From IMG/VR virus record IMGVR_UViG_3300017917_003521: a DNA stretch of 61,745 nt; one strand, given 5' to 3'. The DNA is from a virus. Its lineage: Duplodnaviria > Heunggongvirae > Uroviricota > Caudoviricetes. Below are positions 1,078 through 57,850 of this stretch, piece after piece (the first letter of the stretch is position 1; each line of letters starts with the position of its first letter). The position numbers and the translations under genes are program-made. Under the pieces are notes generated by a model. That model did not search any database and was not told the DNA's origin. It saw only the letters and a program-made list of their open reading frames with translations.

Positions 1078-1620
1078 ATGGATAAAAGACAAAAATGGAA
1101 AGATAAAAGATCAAGAATATTGGATGCGTTAGAATCAAATGCTCATGACAATCAATATGATAGTATGATAAATAATTTATCTTTATTAAATTCTGATGAG
1201 TTTTCAAAAATAAAAGACCGTTTGCTTTTCTTAGCACTTAAAAATTGTTCAAAAGAGTGTGCTCAGTTTCTTCTAAGTAAAGAAGCTACAGCAAATATTA
1301 TGGACATATTGACAAAGTGTGAGTTTACTAAAATGGTTGATGTTTTTAATTTAATTAGAGAATTAGATGTAAGAGATTCTTACTCAAGATTCAACACTGA
1401 ACTTCAAAAACCTTACTTAATAAATCGTTTGATTGACCCATCAAAAGTTGATGCTAATAAAGAACGTGTTGATTATTTATTCAAGTTAATATCTGATGGG
1501 TTTTTCACAGCTGAACAAGTAAGAAGTCAAATAGAATTAGAATATAAAGACAAACCAGAAAAGAAAAATAAGTTTGTTTCAATATACCGTGAATTAGCAC
1601 TAAAAGAACTAGGAATATAA
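1078..1620 (+). CDS. Hypothetical protein with C-terminal tag (RELALKELGI)
   Basis: ORF track; first gene of a tightly overlapped run. Confidence 0.75.
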   Translation: MDKRQKWKDKRSRILDALESNAHDNQYDSMINNLSLLNSDEFSKIKDRLLFLALKNCSKECAQFLLSKEATANIMDILTKCEFTKMVDVFNLIRELDVRDSYSRFNTELQKPYLINRLIDPSKVDANKERVDYLFKLISDGFFTAEQVRSQIELEYKDKPEKKNKFVSIYRELALKELGI

Positions 1621-1955
1621 TGGAACCCCATGTTTTAATTCGGAAAATAGATGATCGTATTCTTTATAAGATATCCGAGGGTTGTTCTATTGATGAATTG
1701 ATTAATTACTTTACTATTGTTGCTGATGGTTGCCAAAGACGTAGTAGTTTTATTAAAGTCAGTTTAAAATATCTAATTAACAATTGGAAACTTATTAACA
1801 CTGACAAAAAAATGAATACGCTTTATGTTATCTTTCTTAGAAAAAGATTAAAAGACTTGAAGTGGTTAAATGAAAATAAACATAAATTTCCTCAATTAGA
1901 AGGTGAAAGACTTTATAAAGTTTTAAGATTAAAAGACATTCTAGGAAATGAGTAA
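1620..1955 (+). CDS. Hypothetical protein, paralog of 42712-43074
   Basis: RLKDLKWLNENKHKFPQL versus RIKDLDWLIKNKHKFPKL. Confidence 0.75.
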   Translation: MEPHVLIRKIDDRILYKISEGCSIDELINYFTIVADGCQRRSSFIKVSLKYLINNWKLINTDKKMNTLYVIFLRKRLKDLKWLNENKHKFPQLEGERLYKVLRLKDILGNE

Positions 1956-2172
1956 GCTTTGTTATATTTGTTTAAGTGATGATATCTTCATTGATGATAA
2001 TGAACCACTAATTTGTGATAAGTGTGGTGAATATTATTGTTATGATTGCTCATATACTTATTCAATACACTATCAACACGAGGGTCAAAGGTGTTATCAA
2101 TGTGCTGATCAAAATAGAAGAAAGCCTCTTAATAAAAGAGATTATAAAATAGATTATATTTTAAGAAAATGA
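1948..2172 (+). CDS. Cys-rich zinc-finger protein with C-terminal tag
   Basis: Four CxxC pairs; ends RDYKIDYILRK. Confidence 0.75.
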   Translation: MSKLCYICLSDDIFIDDNEPLICDKCGEYYCYDCSYTYSIHYQHEGQRCYQCADQNRRKPLNKRDYKIDYILRK

Positions 2173-2444
2173 AACAAGTTTGGAAGTGTGACTTCTGTTC
2201 ACATACAGATATTAGTGTTGAAAAAATGGCTCAACATGAACCAAAATGTTCTTTTAACAAAGTGAATAAAAAGTGTTATACTTGCAAATATCGATTTGAG
2301 GCAGGGTATGGTGGTGAGCACATTCCAGGTTGTGAGATAAACGAAAATATCTGTAGAGGTGAAGATGATGGAAATTGTCCGGGTTGGGTTTATGAGTACT
2401 TGGAAGAAGAACGTAATAATAAATTAAACGATTTAGGTATATGA
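2169..2444 (+). CDS. Cys-rich protein with C-terminal tag
   Basis: CDFC..H..C and CYTC; ends RNNKLNDLGI. Confidence 0.75.
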   Translation: MKQVWKCDFCSHTDISVEKMAQHEPKCSFNKVNKKCYTCKYRFEAGYGGEHIPGCEINENICRGEDDGNCPGWVYEYLEEERNNKLNDLGI

Positions 2445-2845
2445 AATTATATTATAATGGTAAAGGATACCCAGTAAAATGGAAATCTTTAATGAATAAA
2501 AATATGTGGTATAATATGGAACCTGTCAAATTAAAAATGACAATTCCAGAATCTGTTTACAAGGCTATACTTATAGATATAAAACTAGATGAAGAAAATA
2601 AAACCTTGCGAGATGTTTTCAGATTCAACCTGTTACTACAGAAAGGTGAAATGTCTAGAGATAGAGATAAACTTGTTGTTGAATCTAGTGAATATTGGAA
2701 GATAGATGCTTATTTAGACAGAGTATCAATATCATCTAAATTTAGAAATGGTGAGGTAACTGCTATTTTTGAAGTTTCTATTTTTGAAGAAGAAGAGTTA
2801 GATAAATCTGAATTGAGAAACATATTATTAAATGAACTTGTATGA
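2441..2845 (+). CDS. Hypothetical protein with C-terminal tag
   Basis: ATGA overlaps; ends RNILLNELV. Confidence 0.7.
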   Translation: MKLYYNGKGYPVKWKSLMNKNMWYNMEPVKLKMTIPESVYKAILIDIKLDEENKTLRDVFRFNLLLQKGEMSRDRDKLVVESSEYWKIDAYLDRVSISSKFRNGEVTAIFEVSIFEEEELDKSELRNILLNELV

Positions 2846-3027
2846 TTATAAAAGATAGAGACGAATGGGTAAGTGTTGTAGATTGTCACTATTGTAAATC
2901 ACAGACACCTACAAAAGAGACACATATTGTTGAAGTTGATTATAAATACTTTAAAGGAACCGGAAGAATGTATGTTCAAGTTTGTAAAGAATGTCATCGA
3001 GAATCACAATTAAACAAACTTATTTAA
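2842..3027 (+). CDS. Small zinc-ribbon protein with C-terminal tag
   Basis: CHYC...CKEC; ends RESQLNKLI. Confidence 0.7.
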   Translation: MIIKDRDEWVSVVDCHYCKSQTPTKETHIVEVDYKYFKGTGRMYVQVCKECHRESQLNKLI

Positions 3028-4544: not shown

Positions 4545-4572
4545 AAAAAACCCACTTTAGAGTGGGTTTTTT
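4545..4572. terminator. Bidirectional intrinsic terminator
   Basis: AAAAAACCCACT-TTAG-AGTGGGTTTTTT between convergent genes; same core in inverted orientation at ~45436-45461. Confidence 0.85.
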
Positions 4573-5023
4573 ATTTTATATCTTTTAGTTTTTGTAACTC
4601 TTTTTCAAGGTTTTCAATTTTTGCTTCGTATTCTGATTTGTTAATTTTGATAGCATCATAAAAACCAGTTGTAAATAATTCTAAATTATTTTTAATTGTT
4701 GATGCTTTAATTCTAGCATGTAGTTTAGAAACGGCTTTAACCAAAACAATAGGACTTCCTATTTTTCTACCATAATCATCGGTATTATATAACTCATAAA
4801 CATTCCACACATCAGTCATTGTTGGATTTGATACAGATAGATGATTAATTTCGGATATTCTTTTATCATAGTATTCAGTGTTTTTTGAAGATACGACTTT
4901 AGCACACCAAACTTTGAATTTCTCACCAAACTTTTCTAAGAATTCATTTACATCAGATTCAACATCAATTGGATCTTTATAATCTTCAGATTCAAATATT
5001 TTATAAGTATTTAAGTGTTTCAT
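4571..5023 (-). CDS. Hypothetical protein with N-terminal MKHL..FES motif
   Basis: MKHLNTYKIFESE; follows the neck gene. Confidence 0.75.
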   Translation of the reverse strand: MKHLNTYKIFESEDYKDPIDVESDVNEFLEKFGEKFKVWCAKVVSSKNTEYYDKRISEINHLSVSNPTMTDVWNVYELYNTDDYGRKIGSPIVLVKAVSKLHARIKASTIKNNLELFTTGFYDAIKINKSEYEAKIENLEKELQKLKDIK

Positions 5024-5918: not shown

Positions 5919-6107
5919 ATGAAACTCAAAGGCACAATAAAAGTTGGTAAATTCACAAGAGAAGATTCTATGAAAGCTTGTAGAAAAGCCAGTCGTGAGA
6001 TGGAGTTAGAAAACTCTGTTGGTTGGGTTGCTGTTCGTAAAGCACATAAATCTATTAAAGATTATACAAGAAAACCTAAACATAAAAAAGACTATTCATT
6101 TGAATAG
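5919..6107 (+). CDS. Small basic protein with an ArfA-like tail
   Basis: RKASRE..KAHKSIKDYTRKPKHKK; own promoter and terminator. Confidence 0.7.
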   Translation: MKLKGTIKVGKFTREDSMKACRKASREMELENSVGWVAVRKAHKSIKDYTRKPKHKKDYSFE

Positions 6108-6115
6108 TCTTTTTA
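6084..6115. terminator. Bidirectional intrinsic terminator
   Basis: AAAAAGACTATTC-ATTT-GAATAGTCTTTTT. Confidence 0.8.
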
Positions 6116-6230
6116 TTTTATATTTTCTAAGTTTCTTTTTAGAGTGTACACTTCTTAAATATTCTCCAAAATCAATTTGTTGATCAAATTGATTCCAAAA
6201 CCACTCAGTAAATTCCTTTTTATTTTTCAT
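6096..6230 (-). CDS. 44-aa protein with C-terminal tag (not in ORF track)
   Basis: [44 protein letters not shown]. Confidence 0.6.
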   Translation of the reverse strand: MKNKKEFTEWFWNQFDQQIDFGEYLRSVHSKKKLRKYKIKRLFK

Positions 6231-6453
6231 TGAAAATATTATTAATTTTCCTCATTCTTTTTCTATTGAACATAGCATCTTTACCGGTAACTTTTAGTTC
6301 TTTCCAATTACCACCATCAAATACATAGTTTCTATTTTTAGTAGAATCATAGTAAATATCACCTGTATTTGGATTAGTAGGTTTAATAGTGTTAATAGAT
6401 GTTACACTCTTCCATAAACCATTAGCGGTTAATTCAGTAATTGTCTTTATCAT
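6220..6453 (-). CDS. Small protein: tail-fibre-like beta motif plus C-terminal tag
   Basis: [26 protein letters not shown]; ends [12 protein letters not shown]. Confidence 0.65.
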
Positions 6454-7493
6454 ACTTGAAAGTTCTTAGAATTTTTAAGTTTTTCTAAAATATGTTGTTC
6501 ATCTAGTTCTATTTTCTTAGGTATTTTTATTGATATTTTAATAAATAAATCACCCATACCTAATTGAATATCTGGAATACCTCGTCCACTTATTCTGATA
6601 ACTTTACCATGTTCAGTACCTGGTTCAATTGTAATAGGAATCTCACCGTGTGGTGTGTTAACTTTTAAATTTGAACCAATAATAGCATCAATTATTGAAA
6701 TTGTTTTTTCTACTACTATATTATTACCTTCTCTTTTGAATGAGTAATCTCTTATCTCTTCAACAACAATATGTAAGTCACCAGCCACACCATTTCTAAT
6801 GTAGTTACCATAACCATTCATTGATAGTTGCATTCCGGTAGAAACACCTGCTGGTATATCAACATCGACTGTTTCTTCTTTTACATACGTTCCTTCACCT
6901 CTACAATCTTTACATTTTACATGAACTTGTTGACCTGATCCACCACAATCGGGACAAGTTGATGCTTGTCTTATTTGACCAAATGGTGTATTTTGAATAA
7001 CTGTTCTCTGTCCTGTTCCGTTACAAGGAATACAACTTCTAACATCAGTACCACCTTTACCTGAACAAGTATTACATTTATCCTGTCTCTTGTATCTTAT
7101 TTTTTTATTGGCTCCTTTTAAAATCTCATCAATTGTTAATGAAACTTTTATTCTTAAATTAGATCCTTTACTTTGTGGTCTTTGTCCATTATATCTTTGA
7201 TTAAAAGCATTTCCAAATATGTCACCAAAATTACTAAAGATATCATCCATATTAAATCCACCAAATCCACCACCTGGACCAGAAGAACCGTATCTATCAT
7301 AATTAGCCTTTTTGTCAGGTGTTGACAATATGTCATATGCCTCAGCGGCTTCTTTAAATTTAGATTCAGCCTCTGGATTGTCCGGATTTTTATCCGGATG
7401 ATATTTCATAGCCATTTTACGATAGGCTTTTTTAATTTCATCTTCAGATGCTCCTTTTTCTAATCCTAATACTTTATAATAATCTTTACTCAT
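6450..7493 (-). CDS. dnaJ: Chaperone DnaJ
   Basis: J-domain with HPD, G/F region, four CxxCxGxG repeats. Confidence 0.97.
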
Positions 7494-7512
7494 ATTTTTA
7501 TTTTTTCAAATT

Positions 7513-7827
7513 TTATGCCAGTAGCTGTTTTATTTTTGAATCTCTATATATCTGTTTAGGTGTTTCGGTTAACCTTATAGTTACCCATCTATTATAATTT
7601 ATAAAAAATTCATTATTATAAATAACGGCAGACATAATTGGTAGTTCTTCTATTATCTCTTTGAAGATATTGTTAGCATCTTCTAACTTCCAATTCTTCA
7701 TCTCAGTTAATCTTTTACAAAAGTAATTCATACAGGGTGAAGCAGTATCTATAACATTAGATAGATATTTATCACCTCTAAATCCATCAGGTGCATTTTC
7801 TGATATTTCAACATACCAATCTATCAT
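7513..7827 (-). CDS. Hypothetical protein with C-terminal tag
   Basis: Ends RDSKIKQLLA. Confidence 0.7.
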   Translation of the reverse strand: MIDWYVEISENAPDGFRGDKYLSNVIDTASPCMNYFCKRLTEMKNWKLEDANNIFKEIIEELPIMSAVIYNNEFFINYNRWVTIRLTETPKQIYRDSKIKQLLA

Positions 7828-8408
7828 ATTAAATCTTTATTTTTATCCAATAATTGATTTATTGTTTCTTCTCTTTGATGTTGTTTTATCAACCTATCTA
7901 TTGCTTCTTCATGGTCTTCTATGTTTATAACTTTAGTTACTAAACTAGCAATATAATTATCAACTATTAAAGTTAGTGTCTCTGAAGTTCTATCTATATG
8001 TTCAAAGTGAGCTAAGCAATCTTTTGACTTAATAAACATATCAATTAGATAATCAATAAACTCATCAATATTGAAATACATAGTAAACAGCTTATACCTT
8101 TTGTTTTCCGGTAAAACTCTACCATAACCAGAATCTTTGAAGATTGTAGGTGGGTCTATAAATATCTTAGCAAATACTCTTCTAACTGAAGGTAAAACTA
8201 AATCTAAAGTTTCATCCTCTTCTAAGTATAAAGCTCCCTTAAACTCATCTCTGTCAAATAGATGATATTTTTTATTAATCACATATTCTAGTAATGACTT
8301 AAATGAGTGTAAATGTTCACCACTTATTCCTTTACAAAGAGCTTCAATGATAATTTTTTTGTAACTTTCTTCTTTATAGAGATGTATGAAACTTTTTTTA
8401 GAATCCAT
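7824..8408 (-). CDS. Hypothetical protein with near-C-terminal tag
   Basis: REETINQLL near the end. Confidence 0.7.
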   Translation of the reverse strand: MDSKKSFIHLYKEESYKKIIIEALCKGISGEHLHSFKSLLEYVINKKYHLFDRDEFKGALYLEEDETLDLVLPSVRRVFAKIFIDPPTIFKDSGYGRVLPENKRYKLFTMYFNIDEFIDYLIDMFIKSKDCLAHFEHIDRTSETLTLIVDNYIASLVTKVINIEDHEEAIDRLIKQHQREETINQLLDKNKDLI

Positions 8409-8872
8409 TATTTACTAAGTACAATTTTTGGATGTCTAAAAGGTTTACCATTTAACATATAACCTTTACTAACAACATCTAATATTTTAGATTCACCTGT
8501 AGGTACAACACTAATAACCTCATGTAAATCTTCATCATATGTCTCAGTTTGAATAATTTCTATTCCTTGAGACTTTAAAAAATTCTCAAGCTTTTGAGCA
8601 ATAAGTTGAACACCTTCTCTAGCTGATTCATCTTTGATATTCTTAATTGCAATAGAAACATCATTATCCATATCAAGAATAGGAGTTACCATAGAAACCT
8701 TTGTGTTGAATCTAATCTCTTCTTTGTCTTTTACAACTCTTCTTTTGTAATTCTCAAATTCAGCATAAAGACGAACATACTTGTCTTCAGCCTGAGCTAA
8801 CTTATCTTCTAATGTTAATTCTGTTTGAGTATTCTCAACTTGTTCGTTTACTATTTCTTTATTCTCTTCCAT
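8408..8872 (-). CDS. grpE: Nucleotide exchange factor GrpE
   Basis: RLYAEFENYKRR, YDEDLHEVI, KGYMLNGKPFRHPKIV. Confidence 0.93.
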   Translation of the reverse strand: MEENKEIVNEQVENTQTELTLEDKLAQAEDKYVRLYAEFENYKRRVVKDKEEIRFNTKVSMVTPILDMDNDVSIAIKNIKDESAREGVQLIAQKLENFLKSQGIEIIQTETYDEDLHEVISVVPTGESKILDVVSKGYMLNGKPFRHPKIVLSK

Positions 8873-12802: not shown

Positions 12803-12814
12803 AAAGTATATATA

Positions 12815-13216: not shown

Positions 13217-13219
13217 ATA

Positions 13220-25485: not shown

Positions 25486-25720
25486 CCGTGTTACTATCAT
25501 AACTAGAGCACATGACGATCTAAAATATAAGTCTGGTAATATAGTTGCTGGTAAAAAATCAACACCGGATTTAAATGTATATAAAGTTTCTTTGGATGTA
25601 TACCCAAGTGGTTATCAACTAAAGCAACATTTAATTCCAATTCTTTTTGCTGAAGAAGAATTAATATTTGAGGATACTGATAAAGAAAGAGATTGGAAAA
25701 TTAAACAAGTATTGAAATGA
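25361..25720 (+). CDS. SH3/KOW-like small protein with C-terminal tag (start uncertain)
   Basis: FSKGDRVTI..; ends RDWKIKQVLK. Confidence 0.6.
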   Translation: MLTTYMKKLKHLVLTLIQKLKRKQKTLRYLDIDNNLKFSKGDRVTIITRAHDDLKYKSGNIVAGKKSTPDLNVYKVSLDVYPSGYQLKQHLIPILFAEEELIFEDTDKERDWKIKQVLK

Positions 25721-26963: not shown

Positions 26964-27464
26964 TTATTGTAATATTGCGTTTATTTTACCGTCTCTTTCT
27001 TCATATTTTTCTGTTATATCGGCATATCTAATTCTATAGCTAACCGATAAGTTTTCTAGATTTACATACTTAACAATCGAAAAAATAACAAATTTTTTCC
27101 ATCTACCTTTATTGAAAAAAACTCCTATTTCATCATCGGACTGAAACTCATGACATTCAACAGAATATGAATTGGAAACTATTATATTATTTTCTACCTT
27201 AAACATTTCAAATTTTGGCAGAGTTGTCACATATGAAATATACTGCCAATAGTTATCCAAGAACTCACCTAACCAGATTGATGGTGATACTGTAGCAATA
27301 GTTATATTACTATTATTCTCACTACCCATTCTCATACAATTGTCAATTAATATCTTTATACCTTCTAGATTATCTTGACTTATTGGATATAATGTTATAT
27401 TTTTTGGATCCGTATTTGTAAATTGAATCGGACCATTCATATTTTTGATTAAATCTTTAAACAT
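26964..27464 (-). CDS. Hypothetical protein with C-terminal tag
   Basis: Ends RDGKINAILQ. Confidence 0.7.
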   Translation of the reverse strand: MFKDLIKNMNGPIQFTNTDPKNITLYPISQDNLEGIKILIDNCMRMGSENNSNITIATVSPSIWLGEFLDNYWQYISYVTTLPKFEMFKVENNIIVSNSYSVECHEFQSDDEIGVFFNKGRWKKFVIFSIVKYVNLENLSVSYRIRYADITEKYEERDGKINAILQ

Positions 27465-28887: not shown

Positions 28888-29071
28888 TGAAGATTCTCAT
28901 TATTTTTTCTTTTCTACTACTTTTTCGTAAATTATTAATAATATTAACAACAGCTTTTGAAACGACCATACAATTGCTATTACCATATCTAGAACTATTG
29001 TTTATAATAGCAGACGCTTGTAATATTTTATCTATTAACTCTTTAGACATATCTTGTGGTTTATATTCCAA
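28868..29071 (-). CDS. Mini-protein resembling a second gp23 fragment plus C-terminal tag
   Basis: LIDKILQASAIINNSSRYGNSNCMVVSKAV; RKEKIMRIF. Confidence 0.6.
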   Translation of the reverse strand: MEYKPQDMSKELIDKILQASAIINNSSRYGNSNCMVVSKAVVNIINNLRKSSRKEKIMRIFNEETQS

Positions 29072-48916: not shown

Positions 48917-49129
48917 ATGGCTATAAGAAAAGGAGATAAACTTTTGTGTACCAAGGAGGTTAATAACGTCTTTGGTATGCCTCTTTTTAAAAAAGATGAA
49001 GTATATGAAGTACTTTGTGTTGATAATGAAAAAGTAAAAACATATATTACCTTAAATCATATCCTTTATGCTAATGAGTATATGGAACATGAACTAGAAT
49101 GGGTGTTAAAACATTTCAAGCAATTATGA
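48917..49129 (+). CDS. SH3-like small protein
   Basis: KGDKLLC..F.K...YEV. Confidence 0.68.
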   Translation: MAIRKGDKLLCTKEVNNVFGMPLFKKDEVYEVLCVDNEKVKTYITLNHILYANEYMEHELEWVLKHFKQL

Positions 49130-49581
49130 TAAACGATAAAGTTAAAATGATTATAGAAAATCTAACACTATCTACTAAAAATGGAGAGTTGGATTGGATG
49201 GATAAAGGTTCACCTGATAAAAGAAACTATCATCGTGAGTATTATGCTATTGCTGAGGATGGTACAAGATATGAAACAGAAGTTAAATACACACTAGGTA
49301 ATAGTGGTGTTTGGCAATTAGAGTCAGCTCCTTCTATATGGGTTAGAAATGAAAAACTACCTAACGGTGCTTATTATATCTATGGTGGTAATACTGATGT
49401 AAGAGATATTATTGTTGAATTCCGAAAAGTAATAATGGATAAGTATTGTAAAGATATGAAACCATCTGAAAAGATAGTTGAAGATGCTTTAGAAAATATC
49501 GCTAAAGGTATTAGTTTATCTACTTATCGTGATAATAAGTTAAACAAGATTCTTAATGTTTTCAAATTATCTGGTAAGTAA
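49126..49581 (+). CDS. Hypothetical protein with near-C-terminal tag (start reassigned)
   Basis: RDNKLNKIL. Confidence 0.72.
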   Translation: MINDKVKMIIENLTLSTKNGELDWMDKGSPDKRNYHREYYAIAEDGTRYETEVKYTLGNSGVWQLESAPSIWVRNEKLPNGAYYIYGGNTDVRDIIVEFRKVIMDKYCKDMKPSEKIVEDALENIAKGISLSTYRDNKLNKILNVFKLSGK

Positions 49582-49828
49582 TAAACTATATCTTAAAAAA
49601 GATATTAGTATTGAGTGTGCTGAAATTATAAATAATAGACCAAGTAATATTCATGAATGGGTTGAATTAAAAGAATCAATAAATATTCTTTCAATTGACA
49701 ATAATGAATTCATTTTTATGAAAGGTGATAAAAAATATATTTATTGGTGTGATGTTAGTATTTTCTTCAAACTCAGATGTAAAAATAAAGCCGAGATAAG
49801 AGAAATGAATTTAAATAAGATTTTATAA
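49556..49828 (+). CDS. Hypothetical protein with C-terminal tag
   Basis: Ends REMNLNKIL. Confidence 0.68.
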   Translation: MFSNYLVSNKLYLKKDISIECAEIINNRPSNIHEWVELKESINILSIDNNEFIFMKGDKKYIYWCDVSIFFKLRCKNKAEIREMNLNKIL

Positions 49829-50220: not shown

Positions 50221-50477
50221 GATTAAACATAGGTGATAAGATATATTGTAAGAGAATAATAGGTGGTAACGGACACGGTCTTACTTTAGATAAAGCATAT
50301 GAAGTTGTTCATACTAGACCTAGAGACAGATGGAATGGTGATGATATCTGTATATTAGATGATGCTGGTGCAAATTGGTGGTTTGGTCAAGTTGGTGAGA
50401 CGGAATGTTGGACTAACTGGTTTGTTTCAGAAAAAGAATGGTTAAGAGAAAAGAAATTAAATGAATTAGGAATATGA
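50217..50477 (+). CDS. SH3-like protein with C-terminal tag
   Basis: Ends REKKLNELGI. Confidence 0.72.
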   Translation: MRLNIGDKIYCKRIIGGNGHGLTLDKAYEVVHTRPRDRWNGDDICILDDAGANWWFGQVGETECWTNWFVSEKEWLREKKLNELGI

Positions 50478-50830
50478 AAGATACAAATGCAAAATCAGAA
50501 TTTTTAAATCATACTTCGAGTAAAGAGATTCTTTGTGCTCAATTACAAAGAGGTGATGATTGGGATGATGATAAGTCAATATTTAATCTAACTACTGGTT
50601 GGACTAAAGAAGACTTAGATTCTTTTCTTTCTGATATTGATTTTGACTATGACTCTGGTTATGGTGGTCAAAATCTATTTGGTACTATCTGGTATACCGA
50701 TGGTACTTGGTCTGAGCGTGGAGAATACGATGGTAGTGAGTGGTGGGAATATAGATTAAGACCAAACATTCCTAAAGAGTTAGATAGAGTTGATAAAGTT
50801 CGTGATAAAAAATTGAATCAAATTTTATGA
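50474..50830 (+). CDS. Phage protein (YDSGYG.Q.LFGTIW..DGTW.ER.EYDGSEWW) with C-terminal tag
   Basis: Motif in translation; ends RDKKLNQIL. Confidence 0.78.
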   Translation: MKDTNAKSEFLNHTSSKEILCAQLQRGDDWDDDKSIFNLTTGWTKEDLDSFLSDIDFDYDSGYGGQNLFGTIWYTDGTWSERGEYDGSEWWEYRLRPNIPKELDRVDKVRDKKLNQIL

Positions 50831-51099
50831 GCAAAGATAAAAAAGCACTAGTTAAAGAAACTGGTGAAATACAAGAGGTTAAAAGTGAATATAAAGTATC
50901 ATACATCACCGCAACTTTCAATTTTGATTTAAGTGATGAACAAAGTGATGAAATTAAAAAAATGACATTTGTTCATGATTCTGAACCTCAAAAAGAAGGT
51001 ACACACTATACTCTTTCAAATGGTAAAACATACCATGAAGAAGATGTTGTTGTTGGTGTGGATAATATTCGTGATGAAAAATTAAAGAAGATTATATGA
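50827..51099 (+). CDS. Hypothetical protein with C-terminal tag
   Basis: Ends RDEKLKKII. Confidence 0.72.
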   Translation: MSKDKKALVKETGEIQEVKSEYKVSYITATFNFDLSDEQSDEIKKMTFVHDSEPQKEGTHYTLSNGKTYHEEDVVVGVDNIRDEKLKKII

Positions 51100-51683
51100 G
51101 TACAAAACTATACAACGGAATTAAATTCAAATCTAATGATATTAGAGAGGTGTTAGACCAATTAATTTCTATCAAGAATAAGGCAAATGAAATAGCTCTT
51201 GATCTTTTAGATGATAGAAGTTTAGCTTTATTTATAGAGAGTAATAATCTTTTAGATAAAGACAAGTGGGAAATCTCAAGAGAAATACTTGATGCACTAG
51301 AATCATCTAACTATAATAAGTGGAAATTTAAACCAAGAATGTACTTTTCTGTTGTTATTTATCCAACAAAAGAAGGTGATATTTATGGTTATTACTTTGA
51401 CTCGGATAAAAAAGAATTTAATGATTTATTAAAACCATTTTATACAGATTTCCATTATCAAAATAACTCAGATAAACCAGATGATATTTCAGATGAAGAA
51501 TGGAAATTTCGTGAATTAAAATGGGATGAGTTATTACCTGGAGATAAGTTTGCAGATAGTGGTTTAAAATATGATATTGTAACTGGTGATACTCTAGATA
51601 TTTTTGACTTACAAGATAAGATTAAAATCATTTTAGATAAACTAAAAAGAGATAATAAAATAAACCAAGTGGTTGGAGATTAG
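51096..51683 (+). CDS. Hypothetical protein with C-terminal tag
   Basis: MSTKLYNG..FHYQNNSDKPDD..EEW..R...W; ends RDNKINQVVGD. Confidence 0.75.
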   Translation: MSTKLYNGIKFKSNDIREVLDQLISIKNKANEIALDLLDDRSLALFIESNNLLDKDKWEISREILDALESSNYNKWKFKPRMYFSVVIYPTKEGDIYGYYFDSDKKEFNDLLKPFYTDFHYQNNSDKPDDISDEEWKFRELKWDELLPGDKFADSGLKYDIVTGDTLDIFDLQDKIKIILDKLKRDNKINQVVGD

Positions 51684-51693
51684 TATAACATTT

Positions 51694-52509
51694 ATGGAAT
51701 TAAATAAAATCTATCAAGGTGATTCTCTTAACCTACTAAAGCAACTACCAGATAATTCTGTTGATTTGGTGATAACATCACCACCATATGCTGATTTAAA
51801 AGTTTATATTGATAATCCTGGTATACTAGCGGATGATTATGTTAATTGGTTTATACCTTATTGTAAAGAAATTGAACGAGTTATCAAACCAACGGGTTCA
51901 TTTATCTTAAATATTAACGATAAAGTTGAGAATGGCTTTAGACATCCTTATGTATTTGATTTAATATCACAATTACATAAACAAACAAATCTTAAAATGT
52001 TTGAAAGGTTATTCTGGAATAAGCTAAAGAGTTTACCTAATCGTGCTAGATTTGGAGATCGTGTTGAGTATCTTTTCTGGTTTGCTAAAGAAAAAGGATT
52101 TAAATTTTACCTAGATGAACTTAGAACTGAGTATTCTGAGCAATCTGTTAAAAGAATGAAGAAACCTCTAAAGAAAAGATTTGCTAGAACTGAAGGTGAT
52201 GATAATATTGATTATAAAGATTGGGCTCCAAATCCAAAAGGTGCTTTACCAACTACTTTAGTTAATATATCATCTGAGTCTAAAAGAATTGCTGATAATC
52301 ACGTTGCTGTTTTCCCAGTTGAACTTATTGAGTATTTTATTAAAGGTGCTACAGATAAAGGTGATTTAGTTCTAGATATCTTTATGGGTACGGGCACAAC
52401 TGCCGTTGCTGCTAAGAAGTTAGGTAGAAATTGGATGGGATTTGAATTACAACAAGACTATATAGATCTTGCGAATATTAGAATAGGTGATTATGTTGAG
52501 AATAACTAA
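51694..52509 (+). CDS. DNA methyltransferase, N4-C/N6-A beta class (start reassigned)
   Basis: TSPPY precedes H.AVFP..L and VLDIFMGTGTT. Confidence 0.92.
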   Translation: MELNKIYQGDSLNLLKQLPDNSVDLVITSPPYADLKVYIDNPGILADDYVNWFIPYCKEIERVIKPTGSFILNINDKVENGFRHPYVFDLISQLHKQTNLKMFERLFWNKLKSLPNRARFGDRVEYLFWFAKEKGFKFYLDELRTEYSEQSVKRMKKPLKKRFARTEGDDNIDYKDWAPNPKGALPTTLVNISSESKRIADNHVAVFPVELIEYFIKGATDKGDLVLDIFMGTGTTAVAAKKLGRNWMGFELQQDYIDLANIRIGDYVENN

Positions 52510-52792
52510 AAATACTAGTAAGGTTGTTTCCATCATAGTCAGCACTAAAGAAGAGGTACCTGATAACTATCAACCACCTCAGATAGATAGTTTTATTATT
52601 ATACCTGGTGTAACTCAATATAATCATATTTATTCTAAAGGCAATTGGATAATATTTGACAGTCATGATACTTATATAGGTGTTGAATTTTCAAGTGAAG
52701 CAGACTTAGAAAGATTTTTTATTCAATTAATGAGAGATATAAAATTAAATCAAATAACAAATGTCAGTATTGAAACGAAAGATACTAAGTAG
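52487..52792 (+). CDS. Hypothetical protein with near-C-terminal tag
   Basis: RDIKLNQI. Confidence 0.68.
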   Translation: MIMLRITKNTSKVVSIIVSTKEEVPDNYQPPQIDSFIIIPGVTQYNHIYSKGNWIIFDSHDTYIGVEFSSEADLERFFIQLMRDIKLNQITNVSIETKDTK

Positions 52793-53012
52793 AATAGGTG
52801 TTATATCTGGAATACTAGCATTTTTAATGTTGTTTGTTATACCATTTATTTTAATTAAAATTCCCGGTATAAATAATAAATTATGGGCTGGTATTTACTT
52901 CTGTATATTCTTAGTTTGTACGGCAGTTGCTAATATAAGTTTTGAGAAGTCAGGTAAGCCAGTTACTCTTGATGAAGAAAGAGAAGAAAAAATTAGGCAA
53001 ATTTTTAAGTGA
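52761..53012 (+). CDS. Two-TM membrane protein with C-terminal tag
   Basis: Two hydrophobic helices; ends REEKIRQIFK. Confidence 0.72.
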   Translation: MSVLKRKILSRIGVISGILAFLMLFVIPFILIKIPGINNKLWAGIYFCIFLVCTAVANISFEKSGKPVTLDEEREEKIRQIFK

Positions 53013-53317
53013 AAGTTTATTGTAAAAGAACCTATTTTGAAAAGAATACAAACTACTTTCCAGTAAATGGAAAAGAATATGGTCAAGATTATGCTAAGTG
53101 GGCTTGGGGTAAACTATATGAATGTAGGGAACCTGATGATTATGAAAGAGGTGGTCATACCGAAATGTTTCCAGGTATTTACTTATACATAGAATCTGAA
53201 GTTAAAAACACTTGGTGTCCAATAAAAGAAAAAGATTTTAAAAAGTATTTTGAAACTTTAGATGAACATCGTAATAATAAAATAAATCAAATATTAAATG
53301 ATAGCAGAATATCATAA
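53009..53317 (+). CDS. SH3-like protein with C-terminal tag
   Basis: F.KYF..L.EHRNNKINQIL. Confidence 0.72.
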   Translation: MKVYCKRTYFEKNTNYFPVNGKEYGQDYAKWAWGKLYECREPDDYERGGHTEMFPGIYLYIESEVKNTWCPIKEKDFKKYFETLDEHRNNKINQILNDSRIS

Positions 53318-53807
53318 TTTTTTAACACAAGATGAGTGTAGTTTATTAATAGGACTTGGTGAGTCTGGTGCTTTGAATTTTGGAAAAACTAATGGTGATA
53401 AACTAGGTTATAGAAAAGCAAAGGTTACTTGGTTTGATTTAAATAATCAATTTGTAAATAATATAAAATCAAAAATATCAGAGTTATCTGGATTACCTAT
53501 TGAGAATCAAGAAAAGTTTCACTTTGTAAAATATAATGTAAGTGGTGAATATAAGATACATCATGATGGATTAAATAGACAAAAAACAGCTGTTATTTAT
53601 CTTAATGATGGATTTCAAGGTGGTGAAACTGTATTTCCTAAAGTAGATAGAGTTGTTAAACCAGAAACAGGTAAATTAGTTATTTGGAACAACTATGATG
53701 AAGATGGTTTAAAAATAGAAGAAAGTCGACATGCTGGTCTACCAGTAGATTTTGGAACCAAATACATAGCAGTTATTTGGATAAGAAATACTAAATATGA
53801 GGAATAA
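53298..53807 (+). CDS. 2OG-Fe(II) oxygenase (prolyl-4-hydroxylase-like)
   Basis: HHD, YLND...GGET.FP, HAGLPV..G.K. Confidence 0.9.
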   Translation: MIAEYHNFLTQDECSLLIGLGESGALNFGKTNGDKLGYRKAKVTWFDLNNQFVNNIKSKISELSGLPIENQEKFHFVKYNVSGEYKIHHDGLNRQKTAVIYLNDGFQGGETVFPKVDRVVKPETGKLVIWNNYDEDGLKIEESRHAGLPVDFGTKYIAVIWIRNTKYEE

Positions 53808-54547
53808 TGAAATACTTAACAGATAGTGAAATATTAAATTGGAATAAAAGATTAGAGAAAAGTGATTACTCTGTTTATCCCGTACCTAATAGAAAGTCGG
53901 CTGAGCCTTATTTATCTTTTAGACAGAAGACCAACTCACCATTTGGTATGCCTGGTCAGCTTACAATAACAACTGAACCATCAATAAAATATAAGTTCAC
54001 GTTTTCAATTGCTAGTAATCGTGTTTCAAGTTTTAATGACCTTTTTGGGAAAATATACAAAGAACCATTTGGTAGTAAATCTATTTACTCTGATTTGAAT
54101 AACGAGAAGATTTTTGATATTAAACTAACAGAAGATATTGTCGAGAAAAAAGAAGAATCAAAACATATGGTTCTAGATAAAGAATATGTTAGATATACAT
54201 ATGACTTCTCTGGAAAACTTGGATCAATTATGGCTTACATTTCTTACTTAGAAGATGCTATTAATTTCTTTAATGAAATATGGGGTTATGGTGAAGATGG
54301 TTCAGAGATATGCTTACTTAAATATCCAATAGGAACTTGTGTTTCAACTATAGATAACAAATCAGTTGATTATTTAGTATTAGATTATAAATATTCCAAA
54401 TACAACGGTAAGTATTATATTGATTATGTTACTGCTGAAATGTTAAATACGAATAAGTCGGTTTTAACATATGGTGATATTGTTACATTTTCAGAAGATA
54501 GGCTTTGTTATAGCCGTAATTCAAGAATTGATGATATTTTAAATTAA
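53807..54547 (+). CDS. Hypothetical protein with C-terminal tag
   Basis: Ends RNSRIDDILN. Confidence 0.72.
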   Translation: MKYLTDSEILNWNKRLEKSDYSVYPVPNRKSAEPYLSFRQKTNSPFGMPGQLTITTEPSIKYKFTFSIASNRVSSFNDLFGKIYKEPFGSKSIYSDLNNEKIFDIKLTEDIVEKKEESKHMVLDKEYVRYTYDFSGKLGSIMAYISYLEDAINFFNEIWGYGEDGSEICLLKYPIGTCVSTIDNKSVDYLVLDYKYSKYNGKYYIDYVTAEMLNTNKSVLTYGDIVTFSEDRLCYSRNSRIDDILN

Positions 54548-54550
54548 AAA

Positions 54551-54581
54551 TTTGACAATTAAAAAAGTTTTACTATCTTTG
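54551..54581 (+). promoter_or_regulatory. Bacteroidota-type promoter TTTG-N19-TATCTTTG driving the tRNA
   Basis: TTTG at 54551-54554, TATCTTTG at 54574-54581. Confidence 0.8.
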
Positions 54582-54591
54582 TAAAACAATT

Positions 54592-54671
54592 GCGGGTAGA
54601 GTCTAATGCGGCGTGGAAGTCGCGGGCGCCTCTAAAACGTCTGGCACCGGGTTCAAATCCTGCTATCCGCA
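54592..54671 (+). tRNA. Atypical tRNA with anticodon CUA (amber suppressor-like)
   Basis: Acceptor GCGGGTAG/CTATCCGC, D arm GCGGC-GTGGAA-GTCGC, anticodon loop CT-CTA-AA (CTA at 54632-54634), T arm CGGG-TTCAAAT-CCTG; no encoded CCA. Confidence 0.8.
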
Positions 54672-54673
54672 CT

Positions 54674-54844
54674 ATGAAATATCTTTTTATCTTAGTTGTT
54701 ATTCTCGCTTCTTGTAAAACACAGAAAGCCGGGTGTGACGCTTATTCAAGTAATAGCAGCGACACAACTTATATTTCAACTAATCATTATCACATTGAAT
54801 CTGAACATAAATGTATTTGGATTGATACAACTGTTAGAAAATGA
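54674..54844 (+). CDS. Small lipoprotein (start reassigned, after the tRNA)
   Basis: MKYLFILVVILASC lipobox. Confidence 0.72.
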   Translation: MKYLFILVVILASCKTQKAGCDAYSSNSSDTTYISTNHYHIESEHKCIWIDTTVRK

Positions 54845-55281
54845 TTATAAAAAGAGACGATGGCTTAATGCAAGACCTTTATTGGTTCTGGTCAAAATAT
54901 TGTCATTATAAACTAATTGACGGTGTGGTTCCAGATAGACTCAGTAAGCAATTCGATATAATGTTAGGAATATTAGAAGTAAAATACTCAGATATGTCAG
55001 GAAAATGGAATGGTCAAACTAAGACCGAATTTGAAAAGAACTACAAAAGAGTTCAAGATATAGTTGATAAAAGTGCAGGTGATGAAACCAAGGCAACTAC
55101 GCTAGCATTAACACAAGCAAATCGAATTACAGATGAATTTAAAGCCATTAACAGAGCAATGGCGGCTAAGGCTATGAACCAAGAACACATCTTTGAAATC
55201 TTTTTTCAAAGAGCATATGAGTTAGGTTCTGTTAGTAAACAAGAGTATCGTGAATATAAATTAGAAAAGTTAGGTATTTAA
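54841..55281 (+). CDS. Hypothetical protein with C-terminal tag
   Basis: Ends REYKLEKLGI. Confidence 0.75.
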   Translation: MIIKRDDGLMQDLYWFWSKYCHYKLIDGVVPDRLSKQFDIMLGILEVKYSDMSGKWNGQTKTEFEKNYKRVQDIVDKSAGDETKATTLALTQANRITDEFKAINRAMAAKAMNQEHIFEIFFQRAYELGSVSKQEYREYKLEKLGI

Positions 55282-55574
55282 TGACTCAAATTATTAAGAC
55301 TAATTTTCTTTGTAAGAACGGTAGTAGAATATTGACCGGTACAACTTTAGGTGGACCTTGGACAGACAGATTCATAGAAGGTAAGTGGTATGATGGTGAG
55401 TATGAAACTTGGTCTTGGGAAGATGGATATAGAGTAAATGGTGGTTGGAGAAGATATTTTGTTGTAAACGAAAAAGGTGTGAAAGAAGAAATATCTAGAG
55501 CACATTTCAAGGTAATATTTGAAACAGACACTCAACAATTAAGAGATAGAAAAATAGAAGATTTAATAAAATAA
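55281..55574 (+). CDS. SH3-like protein with C-terminal tag
   Basis: Ends RDRKIEDLIK. Confidence 0.72.
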   Translation: MTQIIKTNFLCKNGSRILTGTTLGGPWTDRFIEGKWYDGEYETWSWEDGYRVNGGWRRYFVVNEKGVKEEISRAHFKVIFETDTQQLRDRKIEDLIK

Positions 55575-55582
55575 AAACATAA

Positions 55583-55978
55583 ATGGAGCCAATAGAAATT
55601 TCAAATCCAATAAATGTTTCAGAGTTATTCTTTGAGATATACAAAAACTTCAATGTTATTTCACAAGTTGAAAAAATGAAGCAACTAAGTAAACGTGAGT
55701 TATACTTACTCTTAACCGTTTGTCTTGATAAATTTTCAGATGAAGATCCAGTTGTTAAGTTTAACTTAATTCCTTTCCGTGATGAAATCATGGCTATCTA
55801 TGATATTCAAGATGAAAAAGATCCAACTGATGAGGTTTTGATTAAACTTATTGAAGAAACAGGAGATAAGTACATTGAAACTGATAACATTACTTACAAT
55901 GGTATTAAATTACCAGAACCTCTGACTAAAGATCAAGTTCGTGATGAAAAAATTAACATCATTAATAACAATAATTAA
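55583..55978 (+). CDS. Hypothetical protein with C-terminal tag
   Basis: RDEKINII. Confidence 0.72.
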   Translation: MEPIEISNPINVSELFFEIYKNFNVISQVEKMKQLSKRELYLLLTVCLDKFSDEDPVVKFNLIPFRDEIMAIYDIQDEKDPTDEVLIKLIEETGDKYIETDNITYNGIKLPEPLTKDQVRDEKINIINNNN

Positions 55979-56014
55979 TATTTTTTGATTATATTTGTAT
56001 CTAAATTATAAAAT

Positions 56015-57850
56015 ATGCAAGAAACTCTGAATACTGAAAATCAGGAAGTGAAAGAGCCAATCATTGGTGAATTCAAACCTAAACGTAAATTTTTAAACTT
56101 TGTCTCGGCTGTTAACGGTGCAAGAATCCGTTTCATCCGTGATGTTGCTTTTGTCAAAGGTGAGAAACTTTCAGGAACTCTTGAAGGTGTTGTTTTCAAA
56201 ATTACAATTTGTGATGAAGGAACAATTAACTTTGAAGAAGTTGATACCAATTTAACAGATGCGGCTATGCGTAAACGTCTTATTGAAGAGATTGAATCTC
56301 TTGATGTGACAGGCTATGCTCAAAAGTTTGTTGTATCTGGTATTCAGTTTGCTGATGTTAATGGTGACCTTTGTTACCTTGAAGTTGAACATCAAAAACC
56401 TATTGATAAATTGAAATCAATTTTTGATGAAGAACCTAAGGCAGAGCTTTCTGATAGAGGTTTCTCAATTCTTGATGCTCTTTTCTCTTCTGAATCAGAC
56501 GAAGAATTATCTCGTGAATTTGAAGGAGAGTCTGATGAAATTATTCTTTCTGAAAAAGACGCTGAGATTTTTGTAGATGCTATTGAAAACCCAGCAGAAC
56601 CAAATGAGAAATTAAAGAGTGCCGCTCAATCATATATGGAAGAACAATTCCGTAAAATGAATGAAGATAAAATCAATGAGTTGAAAAGACGAATTGAAGA
56701 TGGTGAAAAAGAATCTGAAAGATTGCGTAGAGAAATTTCTATGTCTGAAAGTAAGTTGAAGAAACAGTCAGAAGACTTGAAAGTTCTTGAAACTCGATTG
56801 GATAGCTTCAGTGCCAACGATGAAACCAATGGATATGTATTCTTTGTTTCAGAAGAACAAAAAGCTGAAGAGATTGGCTTGACAGAAGAGAACCGTGCTA
56901 TTGCTGACAAAATTGCTGATATTGTTGGTTTGAAAAAAGATGTTCTTTTCAAAATGTTGACCGAAGGTCACTATAAAATCCGTATCGCTGAGAAGTCAGA
57001 TATTACTGCTGAAAAAGTTAAAGTTACTAATGATATCTTAGAAAAGATGAAGTCATTGGTTAATGGTGATGAATCTTTAGATGCTAAAGTAACTATGGTT
57101 GAACCTGGTCATTTTGAGTATCGTGGTAGTATGACTTGGCATCAAATTGTCGGTAAGATGATCCGTAAAGGATTCGAACAAGAGCCAGAGTTTGATAAAC
57201 ATTGTCAATCTAACTCCTATGATTCTCACGAAGAAAAAGCAACTGAAATGGATTTAGGCAATGGTGTCGTTGTTAAATCAGATGAAGGATTTGTTAATAT
57301 GGGTAATGGTGTTTATGGTATTCCACCATCTAATCCAACTCCTAAAGAAGAAAAGTCAACTTCAACTGAGATTAAATCAATAGAAGTTAGAACTTATAAA
57401 GAAGAAACTACATTAGTAGTAATGGGTACTATTGATCACAATGACAATCGTGATGTTGAAATCACTGATGATTACACAGGATTTGGAGTTTATGTTGGCA
57501 ATAAGAGAGTAAAAGCTTCATATGAATCTGATGGTTTTATCTCAATTATGACTTTACCAGAGTTCAAGAAGTGGCAAGCCGCTTACCCAGATGCTTTGAC
57601 TGATGGTGGTGGAGTAGATTCACTTTTACTTCCTAACTTCAAAGGAACTATTGGTGTAACTGCAATGGTTGATGGTGAGTTCACTAATAAATTTGATTTG
57701 AGTGATTACATTCAACATCAAGATGGAATGGATGAAGCTGATGTTTACTTGGTACTACCAGAGGGAACTGAAGTTATGAAGATGGATGACTATCACCAAG
57801 TTCCGGTTGCTGCAATGAGAGATATTAAAATTGATAAAATAATTAAGTAA
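56015..57850 (+). CDS. Large acidic coiled-coil protein with C-terminal tag
   Basis: 611 aa; internal LSEKDAEIFVDAIENPAEPNEKLKSA; ends RDIKIDKIIK. Confidence 0.8.
   Translation: MQETLNTENQEVKEPIIGEFKPKRKFLNFVSAVNGARIRFIRDVAFVKGEKLSGTLEGVVFKITICDEGTINFEEVDTNLTDAAMRKRLIEEIESLDVTGYAQKFVVSGIQFADVNGDLCYLEVEHQKPIDKLKSIFDEEPKAELSDRGFSILDALFSSESDEELSREFEGESDEIILSEKDAEIFVDAIENPAEPNEKLKSAAQSYMEEQFRKMNEDKINELKRRIEDGEKESERLRREISMSESKLKKQSEDLKVLETRLDSFSANDETNGYVFFVSEEQKAEEIGLTEENRAIADKIADIVGLKKDVLFKMLTEGHYKIRIAEKSDITAEKVKVTNDILEKMKSLVNGDESLDAKVTMVEPGHFEYRGSMTWHQIVGKMIRKGFEQEPEFDKHCQSNSYDSHEEKATEMDLGNGVVVKSDEGFVNMGNGVYGIPPSNPTPKEEKSTSTEIKSIEVRTYKEETTLVVMGTIDHNDNRDVEITDDYTGFGVYVGNKRVKASYESDGFISIMTLPEFKKWQAAYPDALTDGGGVDSLLLPNFKGTIGVTAMVDGEFTNKFDLSDYIQHQDGMDEADVYLVLPEGTEVMKMDDYHQVPVAAMRDIKIDKIIK

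Follow-up and report, generated by a model that had tools for sequence, protein, structure and literature searches.

The stretch of DNA analysed here (the window, 61,745 nucleotides) comes from the IMG/VR record IMGVR_UViG_3300017917_003521 of a Caudoviricetes virus. Its G+C content is 29%, and its genes are dense and often overlap. The closest public relatives of the window are the uncultured phages LR745206.1 (634,780 bp) and LR756502.1 (642,428 bp). The core proteins are about 80% identical to those of LR745206.1 (81% for the topoisomerase large subunit), and the 452-512 kb region of LR745206 is syntenic with the window. The window is a part of a huge phage, probably of Bacteroidota, and the carriers described here form a clade of phages larger than 600 kb. 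The subject of the analysis is a short peptide (the tag), which is shared by the C-termini of about 34 proteins of the window. The initial annotation had noticed this common ending, and all the 34 peptides quoted in it were located 0-10 residues before a stop codon. The open reading frames (ORFs, at least 40 amino acids, aa) in whose translations the tag was seen are listed below, with one internal copy in the last line.

1588..1614, + strand: RELALKELG(I), ORF 1078-1620, 180 aa; tag kept in the LR745206 orthologue
2137..2163, + strand: RDYKIDYIL, ORF 1948-2172, 74 aa
2412..2438, + strand: RNNKLNDLG(I), ORF 2169-2444, 91 aa
2816..2842, + strand: RNILLNELV, ORF 2441-2845, 134 aa; orthologue tagged
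2998..3024, + strand: RESQLNKLI, ORF 2842-3027, 61 aa, weak Zn-ribbon match; no co-oriented gene directly downstream
6102..6128, - strand: RKYKIKRLF, ORF 6096-6230, 44 aa
6232..6258, - strand: RMRKINNIF, ORF 6220-6453, 77 aa; just downstream of the phage dnaJ
7519..7545, - strand: RDSKIKQLL, ORF 7513-7827, 104 aa; between grpE and dnaJ
7848..7874, - strand: REETINQLL, ORF 7824-8408, 194 aa; between grpE and dnaJ
25688..25714, + strand: RDWKIKQVL, ORF 25361-25720, 119 aa
26005..26031, + strand: RNSVIDMIL, ORF 25717-26037, 106 aa; next gene convergent
26970..26996, - strand: RDGKINAIL, ORF 26964-27464, 166 aa
28551..28577, - strand: RRIKIKKIL, mini-ORF 28542-28736, 64 aa
28687..28713, - strand: RKNSINKIF, mini-ORF 28678-28887, 69 aa; tagged 67-aa LR745206 homologue, E 5e-18
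28889..28915, - strand: RKEKIMRIF, mini-ORF 28868-29071, 67 aa
32048..32074, - strand: RDRKINDVL, ORF 32042-32434, 130 aa
32469..32495, - strand: RHIQISKIL, ORF 32466-32990, 174 aa
39582..39608, + strand: RHQIIKKII, ORF 39231-39611, 126 aa
46981..47007, + strand: RDMKIGSII, ORF 46516-47010, 164 aa; own TAnnTTTG promoter; next gene convergent
49528..49554, + strand: RDNKLNKIL, ORF 49099-49581, 160 aa; first in the 16-gene tagged array 49099-57850
49799..49825, + strand: REMNLNKIL, ORF 49556-49828, 90 aa
50173..50199, + strand: RDSKLEKIF, ORF 49828-50220, 130 aa
50445..50471, + strand: REKKLNELG(I), ORF 50217-50477, 86 aa
50801..50827, + strand: RDKKLNQIL, ORF 50474-50830, 118 aa
51070..51096, + strand: RDEKLKKII, ORF 50827-51099, 90 aa
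51648..51674, + strand: RDNKINQVV, ORF 51096-51683, 195 aa
52733..52759, + strand: RDIKLNQIT, ORF 52487-52792, 101 aa; tag 10 residues from the end
52980..53006, + strand: REEKIRQIF, ORF 52761-53012, 83 aa; membrane helices predicted: two, with both termini on the predicted cytoplasmic side
53270..53296, + strand: RNNKINQIL, ORF 53009-53317, 102 aa
54515..54541, + strand: RNSRIDDIL, ORF 53807-54547, 246 aa; family with 271 database homologues
55249..55275, + strand: REYKLEKLG(I), ORF 54841-55281, 146 aa
55542..55568, + strand: RDRKIEDLI, ORF 55281-55574, 97 aa
55940..55966, + strand: RDEKINIIN, ORF 55583-55978, 131 aa
57818..57844, + strand: RDIKIDKII, ORF 56015-57850, 611 aa, the largest tagged protein; 731-aa LR745206 orthologue tagged
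60809..60835, + strand: internal REYKIDQLL, residues 122-130 of ORF 60446-61141, 231 aa; RDYKINKIL in the LR745206 orthologue

The motif was not found at the end of any of the 192 remaining window ORFs of at least 40 aa in six frames. With the search pattern R-[DENKHRM]-x-x-[IL]-x-x-[ILV]-[LIFGVTN], placed at most 12 residues from the C-terminus, 31 of the 108 non-overlapping ORFs (greedy set) were determined to be tagged, and merely two matches occurred elsewhere in these proteins. When the last 40 residues were shuffled 1000 times, 0.40 tagged ORFs were obtained on average and never more than 3, so that the C-terminal excess over shuffled controls, which the initial annotation had set as a check, was obtained. 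In the whole sequence of LR745206.1 the tag was detected in 164 of 967 ORFs versus 4.4 expected from shuffles (maximum 14).

The core of the consensus proposed earlier, R-[DEN]-x-K-[IL]-x-x-[IL]-[LIFG], was retained, but it was slightly too narrow and the motif reaches further upstream. The logo of 195 instances reads K(-3), [SQE](-2), E(-1), hydrophobic(0), R1, [DEN]2, x, K4, [IL]5, [NKD]6, x, [IL]8, [L/G/I/F]9. Two types of endings occur, ...I-L-[KND]-stop and ...L-G-I-stop, the latter of which looks like a helix with a Gly C-cap. The tag is followed by 0-10 residues, mostly 1-2, and the proteins end in varying polar residues (K, N, D or E). At position 1 of the C-terminal instances of LR745206, R was counted 99 times and K not once, though K is 2.4-fold commoner than R. 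Position 5 was exclusively I or L, never V, M or F, and position 8 was I, L or V in LR745206. Position 9 of the 195 instances was L, G, I or, in 20 of them, F, and there was no conserved aromatic pair.

The statement that the constraint acts at the protein level was supported by codon usage. The Arg codon of the tag was AGA in 18 cases and CGT, CGA or CGC in 13 cases, and positions 5 and 8 mix the codons ATT, ATA, TTA, CTA and CTT. The use of both AGA and CGN for Arg indicates selection on the peptide. The tag might instead result from a constraint on the nucleic acid where genes end, for instance from the A-rich translation start of the following gene or from the boundaries of cassette recombination. 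This explanation is in agreement with the tight gene packing with ATGA overlaps and the A-rich start regions of Bacteroidota. However, it is disfavoured by these codon data, by the variable distance between the tag and the stop codon, by the absence of the motif from the ends of the other 192 six-frame ORFs, and by the tagged ORFs 2842-3027, 25717-26037, 46516-47010 and 6096-6230, which have no co-oriented downstream gene. Its probability was considered practically negligible.

The bodies to which the tag is attached are unrelated, as had been stated. No pair of tagged window proteins was similar at E 1e-3 in an all-versus-all BLASTP, and merely four paralogous pairs were found among the 164 tagged proteins of LR745206. 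The tagged LR745206 proteins are small: their median length is 114 aa, versus 159 aa for the untagged. No Pfam match below E 8e-5 was obtained for any of 148 tagged LR745206 proteins; with 148 untagged proteins of matched length from the same phage, 40 families were hit, more than 20 of them strongly. Searches of 30 tagged window proteins against Pfam and PHROGs yielded only a weak Zn-ribbon match together with DUF6042 and TacA1-like matches. The description of the N-terminal parts as Zn fingers, SH3-like domains and other heterogeneous modules could be checked only weakly, through one Zn-ribbon match (E 0.003) and one two-helix membrane protein. As had been remarked, the tag is missing from the recognisable enzymes and from the MKHL-motif proteins of the window, in which no ORF bears both this tag and the N-terminal one described below.

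Two tagged LR745206 proteins show homology to the C-terminal portion of a major capsid protein of the gp23 type (200752-202434 in LR745206): a 75-aa protein (255010-255237; Pfam Gp23 E 2e-4, BLAST E 4e-5) and a 243-aa protein (207176-207907; BLAST E 9e-15). The mini-genes at 28542-29071 of the window were also considered as gp23/gp21 fragments. This was not supported for the window, as a sensitive BLASTP against the LR745206 proteome gave only tag-level matches and one tagged 67-aa homologue.

The tag was kept in 16 of the 17 orthologue pairs of the window and LR745206, at a median body identity of 48%. In LR756504.1 (636 kb; topoisomerase 43% identical) about 166 tails of an own variant, E-x-R-K-x-[K/I/R]-I-[END]-x-L-[LI], were found. 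Homologues in LR756504 were detected for 10 of the 164 tagged LR745206 proteins (6%), compared with 14% of the small and 52% of the large untagged ones. The tag was absent from LR756500.1 (462 kb), with two matches in 546 ORFs, and no C-terminal motif of any kind was found in 400 kb of LR756508.1. Judged from these sequences, the tag appears to be a conserved, lineage-tuned address on a payload set with a very fast turnover. About 14 proteins of LR756500.1 (200-370 aa; e.g. 11601-17016 and 197835-199531) end with NADDFGFFDN; this seems to be a single family of paralogues rather than a portable tag. LR756500.1 also has neither ClpC nor Hsp70.

In the family of the 246-aa protein (ORF 53807-54547), the last ten columns of the alignment were 98% conserved versus 86% for the body among the best 120 of 271 homologues. 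The AlphaFold model of this protein had a mean predicted local distance difference test (pLDDT) score of 79, whereas residues 240-246 were below 50 and had no secondary structure. Foldseek gave no PDB match for the 246-aa protein at E 1e-3 or better, and a comparison of the tag profile with the PDB sequences resulted in nothing relevant. A tail that is highly conserved yet unpacked is the signature of a short linear motif, and the tag is short, better conserved than its surroundings, unpacked and portable among unrelated proteins. On a helical wheel, h0, K4, h8, R1, h5 and h9 would share one face with Arg in its middle, and the variable residues together with positions 2 and 6 would lie on the opposite face. 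The conserved face looks like a protein-binding rather than a lipid-binding surface.

Internal copies of the tag were estimated to be about 8-fold commoner than composition predicts. The UvsW-like superfamily 2 helicase of LR745206.1 (120830-122440, - strand) has a 14-residue tag insertion, MRDKKIDHILNGTH, in a loop of the RecA1 domain, which is absent from the orthologues of LR756504 and LR756500. Another internal copy, located where two domains probably meet, occurs both in the window protein 60446-61141 and in its LR745206 orthologue. According to the positive-inside rule, the tail is predicted to be cytoplasmic in ten tagged single-pass LR745206 proteins with an N-terminal helix and in the window protein 52761-53012.

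The tagged genes also differ from the others by their promoters. When the genes of LR745206 were grouped by operon, 89 tagged genes were found behind host-type TAnnTTTG boxes and 22 behind TAATATATA boxes. The corresponding numbers were 221 and 280 for all other genes, and 5 and 47 for the genes with a second, N-terminal tag (Fisher p = 2e-18). By their upstream boxes, the genes with the C-terminal tag are assigned to a putative early class with host-type promoters, and TAATATATA to a late type. The N-terminal tag, MK[HYK]L[KRQN]x[YF]KxFE, is also attached to unrelated proteins and resembles the T4 capsid-targeting sequence. It was found on about 58 LR745206 genes, almost always behind TAATATATA boxes, and both tags were detected on the same ORF once in LR745206. 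The window genes with the N-terminal tag are the following.

4571-5023, - strand: N-terminal tag gene
11627-12802, - strand: N-terminal tag gene
12815-13216, - strand: N-terminal tag gene
13220-13864, - strand: N-terminal tag gene
13861-14160, - strand: N-terminal tag gene
14165-14527, - strand: N-terminal tag gene
14530-14994, - strand: N-terminal tag gene
15005-15541, - strand: N-terminal tag gene
44868-45425, + strand: N-terminal tag gene

The motif was not described in any paper found in the literature search. The tag is undescribed in the searched literature and in concept akin to address or degron tags, among them C-terminal degrons, clamp tails, the T4 capsid-targeting peptide and effector translocation signals. 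It lacks several of their defining features, as described below. With ssrA-type degrons and the ClpX-binding tail of SspB it has in common a short C-terminal peptide on unrelated proteins, which would be read by one machine. Three tagged relatives encode their own ClpC and ClpP, and an N-domain-less ClpC is also found in the tag-free LR756508. In contrast to the phage tag, which is gene-encoded and has a variable distance from the end, ssrA-type degrons are added by transfer-messenger RNA and are fixed at the carboxylate (e.g. LAA). The phage tag further differs by its helical periodicity and invariant Arg, and degradation by Clp is putative here. The T4 capsid-targeting sequence (IPI-III, Alt) is likewise a phage address of about ten residues common to unrelated proteins, but it is N-terminal, belongs to late proteins and ends in a prohead-protease site (h-x-E), whereas the phage tag is C-terminal and of the early class. 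Moreover, the C-terminal tag is carried by three times as many genes as the T4-like N-terminal tag of the same phage. PIP-boxes and T4 clamp tails are C-terminal h-x-x-h-h motifs on many clients of one hub; their clients are replication enzymes and an aromatic pair (FF, FY, LF) is present, whereas the phage tag is found on orphan miniproteins and lacks aromatics.

The C-terminal signal of Legionella Dot/Icm substrates and the oomycete RxLR are similar to the tag in that one short signal is carried by hundreds of fast-evolving unrelated proteins. However, these are translocation or trafficking signals; no secretion machine is implicated for the phage tag, and the tails of the membrane proteins are predicted to be cytoplasmic. 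Poxvirus ankyrin proteins are comparable in that their variable baits are linked to a single degradation hub by a shared C-terminal PRANC/F-box-like hook. That hook spans about 30-50 residues, folds as a domain and belongs to one repeat family, with the host SCF as the reader, whereas the phage has a peptide of 10-13 residues on unrelated bodies. The first helix of HeH/SAP/Rho_N domains (E-L-R-x-x-A-K-x-L-G-I) was also considered, but the phage proteins stop right after G-I and have no second helix. Compared with Rho_N, the spacing of the tag is one residue longer by eye, and no Rho_N, SAP or HeH Pfam match was obtained in 30 window and 148 LR745206 tagged proteins.

The candidates for the partner that reads the tag include the proteostasis genes. 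LR745206, LR756502 and LR756504 each carry Hsp70, two canonical ClpP and one ClpC; the ClpC/ClpP set is present in these three tagged relatives and not in the window itself. The genes in LR745206.1 are located as follows.

423224-425329: ClpC without the N-domain
75119-75859: canonical ClpP
123556-124221: canonical ClpP

The phage ClpC shares 57% identity with that of B. subtilis, and the UVR M-domain and the VGF ClpP-docking loop have been kept. It begins at the linker before D1 and hence lacks the N-domain. In S. aureus ClpC, the N-domain is repressive and its removal raises the ATPase activity; combined with a mutation of the M-domain, the removal leads to adaptor-free degradation of a substrate with C-terminal SsrA, the degron being read by the pore (PMC12583610). 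Due to this repression by the N-domain, the reading of C-terminal degrons by the phage ClpC is an attractive possibility. In IMG/VR, 27 of the 39 loci with a ClpC at least 65% identical to that of LR745206 have tagged genes within 10 kb. About 28 of those ClpCs are of the 695-732-aa form without the N-domain, and these have a common N-terminal extension, ...P-D-I-K-A-A-L-E-D-D-D-D-D. Untagged loci with a full-length ClpC may belong to other lineages. In at least 12 IMG/VR loci a conserved protein of 107-141 aa is encoded directly upstream of clpC (e.g. L067:9611-9955). It was modelled as an Hcp/tail-tube-like beta barrel (pLDDT >90; Foldseek probability 1.0, template modelling score about 0.55-0.59) and ends in a tag-like helix ERR[DE]EIIDEILN (pLDDT about 58; ERRDEIIDEILN).

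The N-domain-less ClpC as a sufficient correlate of the tag was rejected, as LR756508 has such a ClpC (657 aa) and no tag. The case for docking on the acidic N-terminal ClpC extension, PDIKAALEDDDDD, was weakened, as the ClpC of the heavily tagged LR756504 lacks it. A complex prediction with the N-domain-less ClpC of the relatives (710 aa) and a 40-residue tagged tail had a score of 0.00, which counts neither way. Phyletic profiling (present in LR745206 and LR756504, not in LR756500 or LR756508) covered about 85% of the tag-free LR756500 and LR756508 and resulted in 117 candidates, which is too many; Hsp70, PrkA, SpoVR, tRNA synthetases and RNase R are among them.

The PrkA (AAA+/kinase-like) and SpoVR pair is located at 480112-482034 and 483247-484920 in LR745206.1. 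PrkA is 65% identical between LR745206 and LR756504, and the pair is absent from the syntenic site of the window. The chaperone genes of the window were determined to be the following.

6450-7493, minus-strand operon: DnaJ
8408-8872, minus-strand operon: GrpE
18876-20756: Hsp70

The operon with the order grpE, two tagged ORFs, dnaJ and two tagged ORFs (6096-8872, - strand) is syntenic in LR745206 and, together with Hsp70 about 10 kb away, forms a complete phage Hsp70 chaperone set. A sigma-54-like -24/-12 box, TGGCAT-N5-TTGA, lies upstream of Hsp70 (18836-18875 in the window); the equivalent site in LR745206 reads TGGCAC-N5-TTGA.

On balance, the tag probably serves early orphan proteins as a portable docking helix specific to the lineage, with one reader that is cytoplasmic and probably encoded by the phage. 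The tail has about 13 residues, K-x-E-h-R-[DEN]-x-K-[IL]-[NKD]-x-[IL]-[L/I/F or G-I], after which 0-3 further residues follow. It would be a lineage-specific short linear motif, flexible when free and folding into one amphipathic helix on docking. The single cytoplasmic reader would be encoded by the phage and co-evolve with the tag. The tail would have been appended to a large, fast-turning-over set of small orphans made from host-type, presumably early, promoters, the variable body serving as payload or bait and the tail as the common hook. A docking helix that plugs variable modules into one partner had been proposed in the initial annotation; the hallmarks of a portable motif (invariant Arg, I/L at position 5, retention in 16 of 17 orthologues, unpacked tail) speak for that proposal, whereas the common partner was not found.

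Several observations weigh against the docking helix with a single reader. No reader was identified among the candidates examined, so the one common partner stays an inference. The tail in the sole full-length AlphaFold model is a coil, not a helix, and a helical tail was predicted solely in the protein upstream of clpC, with a pLDDT of about 58. The phyletic link between ClpC and the tag is weak, both for LR756508, where the N-domain-less form occurs without the tag, and for LR756504, where the tags occur without the acidic extension. The gene calls were greedy longest ORFs, made with no trained gene finder, and the promoter classes were assigned by crude regular expressions, which left a third of the genes unclassified.

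As to the identity of the reader, the phage's own proteostasis machinery, either the N-domain-less ClpC with two ClpP or Hsp70-DnaJ-GrpE, is our guess, possible but doubtful. The leading specific model, though in itself unlikely, is a C-terminal degron, which would serve for timed destruction by the phage ClpC/ClpP or for adaptor-like hooking of baits and targets. It is in agreement with the two ClpP and the N-domain-less ClpC with the VGF loop in LR745206, LR756502 and LR756504, with the release of S. aureus ClpC for an SsrA substrate by removal of the N-domain together with the M-domain mutation (PMC12583610), with the early promoter class of the tagged genes, with the unstructured tail in the model and with the tag-like helix ERRDEIIDEILN of the gene product directly upstream of clpC in the IMG/VR relatives. 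On the other hand, LR756508 has the N-domain-less ClpC and no tag, copies inside helicases would be odd degrons, and highly conserved families retain the tag. The distance of the tag from the C-terminus varies by 0-10 residues, which indicates that the free carboxylate is not a part of the signal, and the i, i+3/4, i+7/8 pattern with the invariant Arg would suit a surface-docked helix rather than a strand threaded into the pore. A bolder version, which we regard as rather unlikely, is that about 160 fast-evolving early miniproteins per genome bind different targets of the host or of rival phages and plug, by one helix with the invariant Arg, into one phage machine, e.g. the N-domain-less ClpC protease, by which the targets would be unfolded, destroyed or relocated. 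It may be speculated that some of the baits are pieces or look-alikes of capsid and tail-tube proteins, which would fit the adaptor model. The reading of the tag as a client or recruitment signal for the phage Hsp70-DnaJ-GrpE set, for which the window encodes all three members, was considered quite improbable. Four tagged genes lie within the grpE-dnaJ operon, but this may be due to chance, since a quarter to a third of the genes in the region are tagged. No other window protein is as well conserved as Hsp70 (88% to LR745206), which is present in three tag-bearing genomes and absent from the tag-free LR756500; this co-occurrence comes, however, from four genomes, three of which are in one clade. 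The basic flanks and the I-x-x-I-L core are loosely like the peptides generally known to bind DnaK, whereas the helical periodicity, together with acidic or amide side chains at positions 2, 6 and 7, would misfit the extended hydrophobic mode of DnaK binding.

Phage T4 loads unrelated proteins into its head by means of a short peptide, which is a precedent for a packaging signal by which the tagged proteins would enter the head or tail and be injected together with the DNA. A conserved signal on hypervariable bodies is typical of translocated effector repertoires, and some of the tagged proteins are virion-like (gp23 fragments, the tail-tube/Hcp-like barrel). Nevertheless, packaging is very unlikely: the T4-like N-terminal MKHLKxYKxFE tag is already present on about 58 late-type genes, the two tags are mutually exclusive, and the C-tagged genes are mostly behind host-type promoters. 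The chances of self-association, in which the tails pair as short coiled coils into oligomers or a mixed condensate of early proteins, are slimmer still. In tails as amphipathic as these, Arg1 of one helix could pair with Asp/Glu2 of another, but 10-13 residues are very short for a stable coiled coil, and promiscuous hetero-oligomers of about 160 proteins seem costly. The C-terminal site, the length and the basic/hydrophobic mix are also generally known from the membrane-targeting tails of MinD and FtsA. An amphipathic membrane helix of this type is scarcely likely in view of the R:K ratio of 99:0 at position 1, the lack of V, M and F at position 5, the presumed location of Arg1 and Lys4 within the hydrophobic face and not at its edges, the conserved D/E/N2 and N6, which are unexpected for lipid binding, and the membrane anchors already present in some of the tagged proteins. 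T4-type clamp clients bear their motif at the extreme C-terminus, and the h-x-x-h-h spacing of the tag is like that of PIP boxes. The sliding clamp, which had been listed among the possible partners, turned out to be unlikely because the LR745206 polymerase keeps a different tail: the C-terminal half of the split PolB ends with ...VVMDIFGGFK, an aromatic clamp tail of the T4/RB69 type, whereas the tag has no conserved aromatics. The competition of about 160 small orphans for the clamp is implausible, and no match to the Pfam T4 clamp family PF02916 was obtained in LR745206. The tag as a clamp-binding tail of the PIP-box or T4 gp43/gp33/gp55 type is hardly credible.

In some of the largest phages known, the same address is borne by one protein in six, and the tag would thereby offer a common handle on a large share of the 'dark matter' proteins of these phages. 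Once the reader is found, hundreds of orphans per genome could be given a common step of action, and it would become apparent how the early programme is organised or timed. A compact portable tag for protein targeting or degradation in Bacteroidota could also be developed from the peptide. If the baits indeed share the tail as a hook to one machine, it would represent a programmable, virus-encoded platform for targeted proteolysis or targeting in bacteria.

The other recognisable genes of the window include a UvdE, an IMPDH-like enzyme and both subunits of a T4-type topoisomerase II.

34253-36097, - strand: T4-type topoisomerase II subunit
37059-38402: T4-type topoisomerase II subunit

The nearest cellular homologues of the window Hsp70 are all from Bacteroidota (65-73% identity). 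A Bacteroidota host is indicated by these homologues, the TAnnTTTG boxes upstream of operons and a CHU_C domain. The latter is found in a 741-aa protein (40469-42694) with SprB repeat, PKD-like and CHU_C (type IX secretion) domains, which is 50% identical to an LR745206 protein at a non-syntenic site. A DUF2201 putative metallopeptidase with a VWA-like domain (58366-59937) is encoded directly after the 611-aa tagged protein and a 154-aa orphan, and is 80% identical in LR745206.

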